A DNA stretch of 64,000 bases from Vampirovibrionaceae bacterium NZW_1234 (GTDB taxonomy: Bacteria > Cyanobacteriota > Vampirovibrionia > Vampirovibrionales > JAGQHJ01): contig JBGUGD010000030.1 in the NCBI GenBank assembly GCA_041697335.1, positions 96,001 to 160,000 of the forward strand, given 5' to 3'. This document shows, piece by piece, positions 7,751 through 58,988 of the stretch (position 1 is the first letter of the stretch; each line of letters opens with the position of its first letter). The translations under genes and the position numbers were made by a program. Under the pieces are notes generated by a model. That model was not told where the DNA came from. It saw only the letters and a list, made by a program, of their open reading frames with translations, and did not search any database.

Positions 7751-9466
7751 ATGCGTATTGGATTTTCAATGGGATCCGGGCTGGTTCGCTTCCAAGGGGC
7801 ATCGGTCGTGGTGACCCGACGTGACGGGGCTTCGGAAGAAACACAGCAACTGGTGGTGGCCGATGGGCGTCGGGTGACGGTGTCTCAGGACAGCCAGGGC
7901 AAATTCAGGCTCAAAAGCACGGATCCGAAATTAAAACGGCATTTTCAGGGGCCGGGGTTTGATCAGGTGCAGATCACCCGCGTCGATGAGCGGAGCAAAG
8001 TTGTGGCCGACGGCTGTGCTCTCACGGTTCAGACCGTTGGGGAAAAAGGCCATCTCTCGGCCATTAATGGGGCGCAGGTCACGGTGGGCCACATTCAAGG
8101 CGGTGCCGTTGCCAGTGATGCGCAATCCCGGATTCAGCCTTTTCTTGCCGCATCAGCGTCGGCTCACACCACAGAGGAACAGGGTGGCCCCCCCAAAACC
8201 GTAACCCTGGATGAGGCTGAAGCCAATCCCTTTTCGGCTCTCGTCTATCAATTTAACCGGGTGGCCGATATGCTGAAGCTTTCTCCCTTTAGTCGAGAGC
8301 TTCTGGCCGGGACCTACCGGGAATTAAGGGTCCAGCTTCCGGTGAAAATGGATGATGGCAGCCAGAAGATCTTTTGGGGGTATCGTGTCCAGCACAATGG
8401 GGCTCGAGGACCCTATAAGGGGGGAATTCGCTTTCATCCCCAGGCCAACCTGGATGAAGTGCGTGCCCTGGCCGCAGGGATGACCTGGAAAACCGCCTTG
8501 ATGGGGTTAGAACTCGGTGGGGCCAAGGGAGGTGTCATTTGTGACCCGGCGAAACTGTCCCGGCGTGAATTGGAGCAACTGACCCGCAAGTACACCCGCA
8601 GTATTGGCAAGATCATTGGCCCGGAGCGCGATATCCCCGGCCCCGATGTGGGGACCAATGAGCAAACCATGGCCTGGATTATGGATCAATACAGCCAGGA
8701 ATTCGGCCACAGCCCCGATGTCGTGACAGGCAAACCGCTGTCGCTGGGTGGAATTGTCGGGCGGACTTCGGCCACGGGGCGAGGGGCTTTCTTCGTTTTG
8801 GAAGAAGCCTGCAAGGATTTGAATCTGCCTTTGAAGGCAAGTACGGCCGTGATTCAGGGCTTTGGCAATGTGGGCTATCACCTGGCCAAGAACATGGCCG
8901 ATGCCGGGGTCAAGGTCATTGCCGTGAGTGCCGTGGATGGGGGCATTGTGTCGGAGTCCGGAGAGGGGCTGGATATTGATGCCCTTAAGGCCTACGCCGA
9001 CCAGCACAAGACATTAATCGGCTTTCCGGGGACCCGACCCATCAGCAATGACGAGATGTTGACGCTCAAAACGGATATTCTGGCCCCTGCGGCTCTGGGC
9101 GAAGTGATTACCGGCAAGAATGCCCATCAGATTCAGGCTCGGCTGATTCTGGAAGGGGCCAACCACCCGACCACGCCCAAGGCCGATGTGATCCTCCAGC
9201 AAAAGGGGGTTGTGGTCGTCCCGGATATTCTGGCCAATGCCGGTGGGGTGACGGTATCCTACTTTGAATGTGCCCAGAATAAGCAATTCTACAAGTGGGA
9301 TGCCCAGCGTGTGGACCAGGAGCTTCGCCAGAAGATGGTCAGCAGCTATCGCCAAGTTAAGACGGTGGCCGATGAGAAGAAGATCCCCATGCGTGATGCT
9401 GCCTTTATGATTGCCATTCAGCGGGTCATGGAGTCGGATAAGGCTCGGGGCTATATTGAAAACTAG
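7751..9466 (+). CDS. gdhA: Glu/Leu/Phe/Val (glutamate) dehydrogenase with about 155-aa N-terminal extension
   Basis: GPYKGGIRFHP, GGAKGG, DIPGPDVGT, QGFGNVG, EGAN and PDILANAGGV. GGGAGG RBS precedes ATG 7751. Confidence 0.9.
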   Translation: MRIGFSMGSGLVRFQGASVVVTRRDGASEETQQLVVADGRRVTVSQDSQGKFRLKSTDPKLKRHFQGPGFDQVQITRVDERSKVVADGCALTVQTVGEKGHLSAINGAQVTVGHIQGGAVASDAQSRIQPFLAASASAHTTEEQGGPPKTVTLDEAEANPFSALVYQFNRVADMLKLSPFSRELLAGTYRELRVQLPVKMDDGSQKIFWGYRVQHNGARGPYKGGIRFHPQANLDEVRALAAGMTWKTALMGLELGGAKGGVICDPAKLSRRELEQLTRKYTRSIGKIIGPERDIPGPDVGTNEQTMAWIMDQYSQEFGHSPDVVTGKPLSLGGIVGRTSATGRGAFFVLEEACKDLNLPLKASTAVIQGFGNVGYHLAKNMADAGVKVIAVSAVDGGIVSESGEGLDIDALKAYADQHKTLIGFPGTRPISNDEMLTLKTDILAPAALGEVITGKNAHQIQARLILEGANHPTTPKADVILQQKGVVVVPDILANAGGVTVSYFECAQNKQFYKWDAQRVDQELRQKMVSSYRQVKTVADEKKIPMRDAAFMIAIQRVMESDKARGYIEN

Positions 9467-9490
9467 TTCTTGCTCTTCCCGACGGTGAAA

Positions 9491-10495
9491 TTAGGCCTGA
9501 CTCTTCTCGTCCAGACGTGTCTTCAGGTCGGCGTAGAGCAGGGCCATCCAACAGGTGCCCAAGGGTAAGAGTAGCGCCGATACGATGGTGTACAGCAGCG
9601 TCTGGATAATTTCATGAGCGAGCAACGCCGGCTTCTCCGCAAGCATCCGGTAGGCCGTGGCCAGAAAGGGATAGTCGGCCTGGGTCTCTAGGACACTGGG
9701 CGTTGTTTTGGAGAGGATGTAGCTGACACCGATCTCCATGCCGCTGGCCAAGAGCTGGGTGAGCTTCAGGGCTTGGCACAGGACCAGCACGAGGGACGGC
9801 AATAAAAACTGGGTTGCAATGACGGCTATGGCCAGAATGGTCAGGGTCTTAAAAATGTCCACACTCACCAGATCGAGGCTTCGAAACAGTGAGGCGCCGG
9901 CCGAGCCCGGCGTGAAGGCGAAGACCTGAAAGACCAGGGAGAAAAAGATGAGAAGGATTCCGCCCAGGACCAAGCCCACCAGAATAATCAGCAGGGCCGC
10001 AATGACACAGCCCCAATACCAATCCGGGTTGGCTGCCGAGATGCTGAGGGGAATCACGGCCAGACCCAGGGGAATAAACAGAATGGCAAACAGAAAGCTC
10101 CAGATGAGGGAGTAGTCCACCGAACGGCTGACGACCCGCAGATAGAACGCATCCACATGGTCACTGGTGCCGTTCTCCACCAGATCCCGGGCCAAGAGGT
10201 TGAGGGCCGTCACCCAGACAATATAGCGCCAGAACCCATGGAAAAAGATGTACATGCCGGGCAGATTGGCCAGCAGAAAGATAAACCACAACGCCCAGAC
10301 ATTGAGCTGGGGGACATAGGTGGTCAACAGGTCGACCGACTCGAAGGTGAGGACAATCCAGAAAATGACGCCGATGAGCTGGGCCCCCAGCGGGTAAAAC
10401 AAGGGGCGTGTCAAACTCAGCCAGTGGTGACCATACACGCCAGTGCCCTGGGTCAGAATCTCGCCAATGGTGCGTCGCTGATAGAACGGCGCCAA
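9491..10495 (-). CDS. Multi-pass membrane protein of unknown function
   Basis: About 6 hydrophobic segments and C-terminal LLYADLK; immediately downstream of pgm. Confidence 0.75.
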   Translation of the reverse strand: MAPFYQRRTIGEILTQGTGVYGHHWLSLTRPLFYPLGAQLIGVIFWIVLTFESVDLLTTYVPQLNVWALWFIFLLANLPGMYIFFHGFWRYIVWVTALNLLARDLVENGTSDHVDAFYLRVVSRSVDYSLIWSFLFAILFIPLGLAVIPLSISAANPDWYWGCVIAALLIILVGLVLGGILLIFFSLVFQVFAFTPGSAGASLFRSLDLVSVDIFKTLTILAIAVIATQFLLPSLVLVLCQALKLTQLLASGMEIGVSYILSKTTPSVLETQADYPFLATAYRMLAEKPALLAHEIIQTLLYTIVSALLLPLGTCWMALLYADLKTRLDEKSQA

Positions 10496-10522
10496 GGATC
10501 CGCCTTTCGGTGTTTTATGGGA

Positions 10523-58369: not shown

Positions 58370-58388
58370 TTTTTAAATCACCCCAATT

Positions 58389-58431
58389 CACGTCCTTTGT
58401 CCCGATTTGGAGACGAAGGACGTTGATTTTT
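58389..58431 (+). terminator. Hairpin/terminator after tRNA-Pro
   Basis: ACGTCCTTTGTC...GACGAAGGACGT stem followed by TGATTTTT. Confidence 0.55.
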
Positions 58432-58538
58432 GTCCTCGAGGCAATTTTCAGAGTCCGGAGGGTTTTTCTGAAGCAGTCGTTGATCGGGTTTCGTGTCCGA
58501 TAGCGTTTTAGCTCAATTCCTTGGAGAATGCCCCCCGT

Positions 58539-58988
58539 ATGATGCCCCTGTCTTCTGCTTCCCGTTTTTCCGGTAAAGTGTCCATCGTGTTGCCGGGATT
58601 AACCCGCCTTCGGCCTGATAAATTTGATGATGCCCCAGGTAATGCCTTGCATGAGCATCATCTGACCTCTCATGCGATGGCCCCTCACGGTCAGGTCCGC
58701 CGTCTGGTTGCCCAATTTCGGTCCAAGTTCCCGAGTGTGCGCATCAGCTTCAGGCCTTGGGCACCCGGCGGCGATGGTGTGAATGCCGATTATTTGCTGT
58801 CCGTGAAAGACGGGACTCAGAAAGCCCGTCAGCGCGGCTTGGCCAAAAAAGTGGCCCGCCGCGTGCTTCATCTTCTCGAGGCCAAGGGGATTCAGGCGAT
58901 GCCCCTGACCCGTGAGCAAAAGGCTCGCTTCCTGATGCATGACAGTTTATTCCCCAATACCGATGATCTGGGAAATATTGAATCGTAA
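58539..58988 (+). CDS. Hypothetical basic protein starting MMPLSSASRFSG
   Basis: GGAG upstream; ORF ends just before a bidirectional terminator. Confidence 0.6.
   Translation: MMPLSSASRFSGKVSIVLPGLTRLRPDKFDDAPGNALHEHHLTSHAMAPHGQVRRLVAQFRSKFPSVRISFRPWAPGGDGVNADYLLSVKDGTQKARQRGLAKKVARRVLHLLEAKGIQAMPLTREQKARFLMHDSLFPNTDDLGNIES

Follow-up and report, generated by a model that had tools for sequence, protein, structure and literature searches.

Six otherwise unrelated genes in a 64,000-nt stretch of the genome of Vampirovibrionaceae bacterium NZW_1234 (GenBank assembly GCA_041697335.1, contig JBGUGD010000030.1, forward-strand positions 96,001 to 160,000; hereafter ‘the window’) open with an N-terminal leader ending in an RF(x)G-like motif. 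This leader is genuine and occurs genome-wide, with 170–330 of ~3,000 genes as a fair range for its carriers, and its role as a lineage-specific N-terminal signal on orphan proteins and repurposed enzymes is well supported. Besides a full flagellum, a second type III apparatus (T3SS-2) is encoded, which has no motor and is conserved among relatives. Judging from sequence, we consider it reasonably probable that the leader is an export signal for T3SS-2, whose cargo would act in the cytoplasm of a host or prey cell.

The leader motif across the genome

The genome of NZW_1234 (3.70 Mb, 41 contigs, 94.75% complete; G000 in a survey of 151 genomes of the class Vampirovibrionia, with families labelled f1–f11) yielded 3,371 calls with an in-house dicodon gene model, which size and score filters reduced to 2,806–3,041 depending on the analysis. 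Genes from these calls carry g numbers and contigs C numbers, the latter referring to G000 unless another genome is given. DNA of G000 is present in hot-spring and microbial-mat sequencing runs.

The leader is a Ser/Pro/Arg-rich, acid-poor N-terminus with a terminal [VPLI]-R-F-[GSA]-[GSA]. An expectation-maximisation matrix trained on G000 N-termini gave the consensus S/P-[VPLI]-R-F-[GSAQ]-[GSA] (F 0.93, R 0.68) and was used with a threshold score of ≥10; its false positives include FliW, proteins with Sec signals and the window genes at 16043, 59092 and 62073. The top-enriched N-terminal tripeptide was RFG (135 observed versus 27 expected in 2,806 genes), and [PVLI]RF[GSAQ][GSA] occurred in 108 of 2,956 N-termini compared with a mean of 5.3 and a maximum of 9 in 20 composition-preserving shuffles. 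The threshold was reached by 288 of 2,956 N-termini; of 2,321 internal windows only 12 did so, and of as many C-terminal windows only 6. When the matrix was trained on half of the contigs and applied to the other half, with each N-terminus shuffled as a control, scores of ≥10 were obtained for 94/1,384 (8.7 shuffled) and 92/1,572 N-termini (12.3 shuffled). Pooling both halves gave 186/2,956 versus 21 after shuffling, and the motif that a preliminary description had picked out from window genes alone holds up genome-wide, with internal and C-terminal windows near-empty. With upstream starts allowed, the carrier list comprised 347 of 3,041 genes, 55 of the 347 relying on an upstream alternative start.

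The motif phenylalanine is found from residue 2 to residue ~57, and at or before residue 17 in 148 of 307 carriers. Glu and Asp are depleted in the leader (log2 −2.2 and −1.1), while Ser, Pro and Arg are enriched (+0.9, +0.85 and +0.44). A Sec or transmembrane h-region within the first 35 residues was seen in 10/307 carriers versus 447/2,469 other proteins; as a group, carriers lack this hallmark of a Sec/Tat signal peptide, and the leader is non-Sec as first proposed. Because its codons vary synonymously, the motif is taken to be a protein-level one; a DNA- or RNA-level motif was rejected on the same synonymous spread of codon usage.

Leader genes in the window

All six open reading frames and their motifs were recovered with scores of 9.7–14.8, and the housekeeping neighbours are without the leader, as had been claimed (UvrB 1.2, PyrG −0.9, MnmG −4.2, AsnS 1.5). 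The first is a 571-residue glutamate dehydrogenase (GDH; 7751..9466, + strand; Pfam ELFV_dehydrog from residue 190) with the motif V-R-F-Q-G at 7784..7798 (+; score 14.8, F being residue 14). It is an extra copy: a leaderless 417-residue paralog aligns from residue 167 of the query and residue 15 of the subject. Extended GDH homologs elsewhere retain RFG-type motifs, and the choice of the ATG at 7751 rather than the GTG at 7688 as start gains weak support from a 1-nt gap at 7723 in a single low-depth contig from a related strain. The thiolase (56226..57872, −; 548 residues, Pfam Thiolase_N from residue 50) is likewise an extra copy beside leaderless thiolases, a paralog aligning from query residue 45 and subject residue 2; its motif P-L-F-G-A lies at 57780-57794 (−; score 12.7).

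A 745-residue protein (12147..14384, −) combines HEAT repeats (HEAT_2, E = 5e-5) with a C-terminal HEXXH, which was read from sequence, the Peptidase_M90 match reaching only E = 0.52; no relative was returned by a PDB sequence search, and the protein is probably a metallopeptidase. Its motif L-R-F-G-K (14241..14255, −) is borderline at 9.7, and directly behind it lies a hydrophobic, signal-like stretch (14150-14240, −).

The three remaining genes encode orphans. The 94-residue orphan at 17309..17593 (+; score 14.4) has the motif P-R-F-H-G at 17324-17338 (+), placed immediately ahead of strand one in a small alpha/beta model (single-sequence, predicted local distance difference test (pLDDT) 68); a sequence search returned only the protein itself, fold searches gave generic matches and none at E ≤ 0.001, and a search of the Atlas produced no usable match. 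The 348-residue orphan at 32774..33820 (+; score 13.5) bears V-R-F-A-A at 32876-32890 (+) and has no Pfam match at E ≤ 1 and no PDB relative; two G000 paralogs, g1856 and g0299, both carry the leader. The 149-residue orphan at 58539..58988 (+; score 14.7) shows S-R-F-S-G at 58560-58574 (+) and no Pfam match at E ≤ 0.001. The labels ‘HopA1-like’ and ‘LF-like’, which the preliminary description had attached to window proteins, found no support in Pfam at E ≤ 1 or in a PDB sequence search.

An upstream DNA element described below was present at two of the six genes and absent from the other four. It takes the form GCA-N10-TTGAG... at 32712..32739 (+; DNA matrix score 21.5), 62 nt before the start at 32774, and GCAATTTT...GGGTTTTT at 58441..58468 (+; score 15.6), 98 nt before the start at 58539.

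Elsewhere in the window, a 233-residue orphan at 16043-16744 (−) has a helix-turn-helix-like N-terminus, a Pro/Thr-rich tail and no Pfam match; we take it to be reminiscent of phage terminase small subunits, a resemblance only.

Proteins that carry the leader

Carriers are mostly stand-alone genes, in agreement with the preliminary description (monocistronic in 251/302 versus 1,376/2,408 others), and cluster about twofold along the genome. Out of 323 carriers with scores of at least 10.5, the 138 top-scoring ones in sampled regions were compared with Pfam, as were 100 random non-carriers from the same regions; 81 of the 138 carriers (59%) were without a Pfam match, versus 31 of 100 controls. 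Metabolic enzymes among the Pfam-bearing cargo include citrate synthase, isocitrate (IDH), malate (MDH), glutamate, acyl-CoA and aldehyde (ALDH) dehydrogenases, thiolase, an aminotransferase, MalQ, NAMPT and CinA. There are also nucleoside deaminases and kinases, NUDIX proteins, ADP-ribosylglycohydrolase, a RelA-type hydrolase, other hydrolases, and proteases of the ClpP, AAA, M16, M41, S8, trypsin and calpain types.

Many of these enzymes (citrate synthase, IDH, MDH, GDH, thiolase) duplicate housekeeping paralogs that have no leader. In 30 of 34 pairings of a carrier with a leaderless paralog, the aligned region begins only after the motif, which sits in an added N-terminal extension. Five of 119 citrate synthase homologs are extended, four of the five having RFG amid unrelated flanks, while none of the 114 unextended homologs scores ≥10. 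When genes of relatives without T3SS-2 were matched to G000, only 2 of 47 best hits scored ≥10. The prkA-spoVR-yeaH-prkA-clpP operon (C5:195836-205961, locus L092) has the leader on all five genes (scores 12.7, 8.5, 12.9, 10.9 and 16.0), and the genome has no leaderless yeaH. A PrkA-like homolog in G020, a genome of sub-clade 2b (defined below), is likewise N-terminally extended.

A hydrophobic or signal-like stretch directly follows the motif in ~32 of 307 carriers. In g1604, g1768, g3086 and ~20 others, this stretch resembles a signal peptide or lipobox, as if targeting proceeded in two steps; a lipobox-like stretch was noted in three carriers. A leader-bearing protein of 1,077 residues (C8:33261-36494; L074:1261-4491) matches the Pfam model of sigma-70 region 4 (E = 8e-27), probably through repeats.

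A second type III apparatus

G000 encodes two FlhA and two FliP proteins together with paralog pairs of FlhB, FliQ, FliR, FliI, FliF, FliE, FlgB, FlgC and FlgF/G; FliH and FliJ likewise occur in two sets. Set 1 is a full flagellum with motor, hook, junction, P and L rings, three flagellins and FliD; two motAB stator pairs (C4:11627-13225 and C10:135698-137695) accompany this one flagellum. Set 2, or T3SS-2 (loci L060-L063), comprises rod genes, a lytic transglycosylase, fliE, fliF, a fliG-position gene, fliH, flhA and fliI at C32:8784-20950; a SctQ/FliN-like gene, fliO, fliP, fliQ and fliR at C8:66046-69852; flhB and a FliA-derived sigma factor gene at C29:178730-180600; and fliJ, a weak FliK-like and a FlgE-like gene at C30:50562-52826. 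Homologs of the core sctJNQRSTUV genes are complete (FliF2, FliI2, SctQ-like, FliP2/Q2/R2, FlhB2, FlhA2), and flgB, flgC and fliE all lie inside the T3SS-2 cluster. Set-2 proteins mostly match flagellar models best, many of them below cut-offs. No second FliG, P ring or flagellin is present in set 2, the genome having one FliG_C and one FlgI. The fliG-position protein (385 residues) has no family match, and FliQ2, with 179 residues, is double the usual length.

A secretin (SctC) linked to T3SS-2 was not found, the two secretins of G000 sitting in type IV pilus and Tad loci, although T3SS-2 might use one of them in trans. VirB4 and VipB were not found in this 94.75% complete genome, and a search for CesT-type chaperones was without a match, its control also matching nowhere. 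A predicted complex of the FlhA2 cytoplasmic domain with the citrate synthase leader scored 0.00, the controls not having been folded, and weighs neither for nor against such a pairing.

FlhA homologs were detected in all families of the survey but f5 (0/33) and f10 (0/2). The FlhA2-type gate was found in 35/35, 8/8 and 11/11 genomes of f7, f8 and f9, and flagellin in 0/35, 0/8 and 0/11 of them; the gate is retained in all 54 flagellin-less genomes sampled. In nine f7/f8/f9 genomes, the MotB plug, FliG_C and FlgI were each absent (0/9), while rod C-termini were present in eight. In G144 (f7), the second FlhA hit amounts to no more than part of a domain. Stand-alone proteins whose match to FlhA is confined to its cytoplasmic domain (25-34% identity) were seen in G144 (C1:1501917-1503008, L188), G001 (C7:59374-60483) and, twice, G013.

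In both trees FlhA2 forms one long-branched clade (support 1.0) within flagellar FlhA and apart from SctV, with sub-clades 2a (f1, f2, f3, f4, f7) and 2b (f6, f8, f9, f11). A grouping of FlhA2 with SctV was rejected by the approximately unbiased (AU) test (p = 0.019, fast constrained search with 2,000 replicates), and model scores were 678 bits for FlhA versus 586 for SctV, both under cut-off. A sister relationship to the flagellar FlhA of the class had a support of 0.907 with FastTree (61 rows), was absent in an incomplete IQ-TREE run (37 rows) and was not rejected by the AU test (p = 0.19). FlhA2 is 62-67% identical to 13 loci, most of them titled Gastranaerophilales, Melainabacteria, Vampirovibrio or uncultured bacterium, which places G000 among the Vampirovibrionia/Melainabacteria. 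FlhA2 of L100, titled Vampirovibrio, branches inside the Gastranaerophilales-titled group, and several FlhA2-locus titles look wrong. A search of 1.84 billion representatives gave, within its top 150, no full-length match above 41% identity outside the protein’s own cluster; one full-length protein matched over part at 49%.

A multi-copy family of 110-residue helical-hairpin proteins without a Pfam match (model pLDDT 91.5) is a candidate needle or filament subunit. Copies lie at C8:98161-98493, C10:10475-11502, C10:180208-180507 and C7:123788-124123 in G000, and at L213:17480-17812, L041:795-1853 and L044:7559-9283 in others; 4-6 matches were found in G000, G146, G029 and G004, and 15 in G001. 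The gut/f7 relatives have inserts of 200-600 residues between the conserved termini of the hairpin, an arrangement like that of flagellin termini. The family occurred in 9/9 genomes of 2a and 0/10 others. Fold searches returned generic coiled coils only, and the nearest Pfam-bearing Atlas cluster was Flagellin_C at 0.75, a lead only.

Upstream elements and sigma factors

Many leader genes are preceded, at a distance of 50-120 nt from the start, by a common DNA element (held-out 49/140 versus 106/1,814), which splits into two forms. Type C is GCAH-N9-TTGAG-N4,5-TT, and in 35 of the 47 cases with any downstream gene that gene bears the leader. Type A is GCAATT-N16-TTTTAT, with 38 copies in G000 versus 8 at N15 and 1-2 at most other spacings; its targets are mostly orphans rich in Gly/Gln/Tyr/Pro, together with a sigma factor gene. 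From position, orientation and spacing, both elements would be promoters. Behind the same promoter family, for example at C30:70518, C29:135754, C28:11996 and C25:79983, stand orphans whose N-termini are rich in Gly/Gln/Tyr/Pro but show no RF motif, with further such orphans at L192:18310-19521 and L218:17988; it is possible that they are tip, translocon or early-substrate proteins. In G001, hairpin genes are immediately preceded by a type A site in five cases.

Whole-genome counts of promoter A at spacings of 16 versus 19 separated 2a from the rest (235 versus 46 in 12 2a genomes, 30 versus 28 in eight 2b genomes, 19 versus 20 in four T3SS-less genomes), G005 and G004 being weak. The corresponding counts for promoter C were 84 versus 14 in f1, where some sites were double-counted, 61 versus 34 in other 2a genomes, and 22 versus 15 and 16 versus 25 elsewhere.

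Two divergent FliA-derived sigma factors (C29:179872-180600 and C16:18950-19630) track the second apparatus across the class: the sigma factor was present in 16/16 genomes with T3SS-2 and 0/3 without it. The second of these genes has a type A site 324 nt ahead of it. The two sigma-28-derived factors probably drive the two promoter classes, A serving the hairpins and low-complexity orphans and C the leader genes.

Distribution of the leader among relatives

Leaders in relatives were counted in genome samples of 40-300 kb. Those from 2b and T3SS-less genomes were only 40-120 kb each, so negatives there are weak, and the G000-trained matrix recovers little in low-GC relatives. RF leaders were enriched in the 2a genome G029 (8/232 versus 1.1 expected) and absent from four samples of T3SS-less relatives (0/210 genes); a looser pattern was enriched in G004. 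Asn/Gln-rich variants of the leader were seen by eye in G144, and the flagellated G071 showed no enrichment (1/91). The leader, the hairpin family, the sigma pair and promoter A all point to sub-clade 2a, with a far larger repertoire in the family of G000. Because kin are not independent, this co-occurrence amounts to one or two evolutionary events and carries no statistic.

The T3SS-2 reading and its rivals

On the reading we favour, each cargo protein would begin with a disordered leader poor in acidic residues, the Phi-R-F-small core of which would be recognised by the gate of T3SS-2 or by an adaptor, and the protein would be threaded through the rod and a filament of hairpin proteins. It would then work in the cytoplasm or an organelle of the host or prey, since much of the cargo (IDH, MDH, GDH, thiolase, citrate synthase, AAA proteases) needs NAD, CoA or ATP and would be of little use in the periplasm or medium; the destination would thus be a compartment that holds these cofactors.

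Several observations weigh against this. The link between leader and T3SS-2 is a co-occurrence among related, non-independent genomes, and it is uneven. Within 2a, G004 was weak (7/218 versus 2.1 with a looser pattern), G144 marginal (7/243 versus 3.4, p = 0.06; 5 versus 1.1 with a post hoc pattern), and G001 (2/158) and Gastranaerophilales loci (1/198) were not enriched at all. Sub-clade 2b has T3SS-2 without leader enrichment (RF 0/396, strict pattern 3/396, in five ~100-kb samples). The rod, hook and hairpin proteins of T3SS-2 itself are without the motif (0/10), only its transglycosylase scoring, and the 148 motifs within 17 residues of the start are nearer to it than the flagellar gate motif permits. 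Neither a translocon nor a dedicated channel in the outer membrane was identified in G000. T3SS-2 operons of G000 are without the upstream element, type A stands ahead of a leader gene in only 5 of 28 cases, and promoter C is strong in f1 alone. Finally, the cargo proteins PrkA, SpoVR, YeaH and NAMPT have no leaderless full equivalent to serve the cell itself.

The main rival, which we regard as unlikely, sees in the leader a tag for processing or degradation inside the cell (an adaptor site, or cleavage between R and F to expose an N-end-rule Phe), carried by a second, stage-specific proteome made under an alternative sigma factor, for instance in an attack or resting stage, with no export. 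The promoter element shared by leader genes would suit such a regulon, cofactor-dependent enzymes function naturally in their own cytoplasm, and the cargo includes ClpP, AAA and FtsH-like proteins as well as the PrkA-SpoVR-YeaH module, which is familiar from stationary phase and sporulation and has no leaderless YeaH here. However, the 59% of carriers that are Pfam-less orphans, mostly stand-alone, resemble effector repertoires; the ~32 carriers with a hydrophobic or signal-like stretch after the motif would be odd as degron-tagged cytoplasmic proteins; and T3SS-2, kept without motility in 54 genomes, would be left without known cargo.

The preliminary description had instead proposed flagellar type III export, pointing to two window FliD proteins that start with FGG. 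Both were confirmed to do so: the copies at 4662..6461 (−) and 45547..47340 (+) match Pfam FliD_N/C and score 14.5 and 10.9. Some bacteria do secrete non-flagellar proteins via the flagellum, flagella are complete in G000 and G029, and FlgK (PTFFG), FlgJ and FliE2 are weak F-centred look-alikes (scores 5-6). Yet the FliDs are the only 2 of 17 set-1 export substrates to score ≥10, the three flagellins, FlgK/L and the rod and hook proteins of the flagellum falling below the threshold (FlgD, FlgJ, FlgK and FlgM being presumed from gene order). FliD of G029 begins SLSGLASG, with no FGG, although RF leaders are enriched in the sample of that genome; N-termini resembling the leader are seen in G144, which is without flagellin, MotB, FliG, FlgI and a full flagellar FlhA; and the flagellated G071 lacks enrichment. 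On the substrate count and the G029 FliD, we read FGG as a variant of the FliD family’s own N-terminus, probably separate from the cargo leader, and rejected the flagellar-signal reading, which appears quite improbable. Neither fliD is preceded by the cargo promoter element, and both are distant from other flagellar genes. What stands of the original proposal is a lineage-specific N-terminal signal on orphans and repurposed enzymes, with a type III route as the best candidate; the flagellum is probably the wrong route.

Very improbable, in our view, is a role confined to the time after delivery, in which the leader would mimic a mitochondrial or plastid transit peptide for entry into prey organelles and another signal would serve export. 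Transit peptides are Ser/Arg-rich and acid-poor with R-x-F/S-S cleavage contexts, which the composition of the leader recalls, and the cargo is like a mitochondrial matrix or plastid set (citrate synthase, IDH, MDH, GDH, acyl-CoA dehydrogenase, ALDH, M16, ClpP, MalQ, RelA-type hydrolase). Many leaders, though, have 2-10 residues before the F, too short for transit peptides, and the Asn/Gln-rich variants in gut relatives and the lipobox-like stretches in three carriers fit poorly. As an added role, such mimicry is compatible with export by T3SS-2. It is scarcely probable that the leader serves another exporter, be it a type IV pilus/type II secretion-like system, Tad or an unrecognised one; type IV pilus and Tad loci with secretins exist in G000, but these systems take Sec/Tat substrates or prepilins, and carriers are without h-regions. 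An artefact of mis-called starts or composition is extremely improbable and already largely refuted by the extended homologs and held-out enrichment: starts do come from an in-house caller, 55 of 347 of them upstream alternatives, yet the enrichment also appears with the caller’s unbiased starts, exceeds that in shuffled sequences and recurs in held-out contigs, the same extended forms with RFG are found in independent databases, and an independent DNA element lies 50-120 nt upstream of the starts.

Beyond export by T3SS-2 as such, a wider scenario is offered only tentatively. An injectisome may have evolved from a flagellum independently in the Vampirovibrionia, keeping the rod, exchanging flagellin for a hairpin needle and adopting a two-sigma cascade. 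By means of a strict consensus signal, up to a tenth of the proteome might be injected, with duplicate metabolic enzymes and proteases running the cytoplasm or organelles of the prey, and the machine might persist in the flagellin-less gut Gastranaerophilales with an unrecognised host-cell partner.

Comparison with known systems

To our knowledge, type III signals are noted for the absence of a consensus. If the T3SS-2 reading is true, a sharp, countable substrate motif would make the long-open question of type III cargo recognition directly testable and provide an immediate list of predicted substrates for an uncultured class, a second exaptation of the flagellum, its rod genes still in place, would form a living intermediate that links flagellum and injectisome, and the ‘incomplete flagella’ of gut Melainabacteria would become working secretion systems. 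No description of the leader or of two separate systems, and no text pairing Vampirovibrionia with a T3SS, was found in full-text literature, a coverage lacking most subscription papers and supplements.

Like an injectisome, T3SS-2 combines a flagellum-derived gate and ATPase with an MS ring and a C-ring protein but has neither motor nor flagellin, and its many putative substrates are scattered, stand-alone proteins with Ser/Pro-rich, acid-poor N-termini. Unlike an injectisome, it keeps fliE, flgB, flgC and other rod genes, has no dedicated secretin that we could find, places its FlhA2 among flagellar FlhA rather than with SctV, and is paired with a leader of sharp consensus. Injectisome-like in its proposed working, it nevertheless falls outside the injectisomes as defined by the SctV clade, the absence of flgB, flgC and fliE, and a linked secretin. 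The available part of Abby and Rocha 2012 (PMC3459982) describes one exaptation of the flagellum and uses flgB, flgC and fliE as flagellar markers, by which T3SS-2 would be filed as a flagellum.

The flagellar early-substrate signal, as outlined in the accessible portion of PMC8983047, combines a hydrophobic N-terminal signal with a gate recognition motif and, like the leader, is unchaperoned, N-terminal and built on a small hydrophobic motif. It differs in that 148/307 leaders have the F at position ≤17, while rod and hook proteins score below 7 and have no RF motif. The Xanthomonas TrM (PMC6638074, abstract) is likewise a Pro/Arg-rich N-terminal motif of several type III effectors and required for export; it belongs to another lineage and injectisome family, its abstract describes no near-invariant Phe, and nothing found here points to lipid binding by the leader or to a chaperone of the HpaB type.

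Parts of T3SS-2 have been seen before. The ACD20 cluster flgG, flgG, flgC, fliF, fliH, flhA, fliI, flgE, with a second flhA elsewhere, agrees with T3SS-2 in gene order; the available text of Di Rienzi 2013 (PMC3787301) lists it as flagellar and explains the partial set by genome reduction. A 2026 preprint (bioRxiv 10.64898/2026.04.24.720558) reports, in its accessible part, retained flhB, fliI and flgG, postulates secretion, and finds full flagella in about a quarter of Gastranaerophilales; our counts for the flagellin-less families are those of samples. As far as these portions extend, both works treat the genes as flagellar or remnants, without two paralogous systems, a signal, cargo, sigma factor or filament subunit. 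Utami 2018 discussed partial flagellar sets as questions of motility.

For the predatory relative Vampirovibrio chlorellavorus, Soo 2015 (PMC4451040) proposed a type IV secretion system (T4SS), and the available part of that paper makes no mention of ‘type III’. It depicts an attachment pad, spikes into the alga and a predicted delivery of enzymes; unlike in the T4SS model, no VirB4 was found in G000. T3SS-2 may be an alternative candidate for these spikes, and would offer a testable alternative to the T4SS model of attack by Vampirovibrio-type predators, which are pests of algal cultures.

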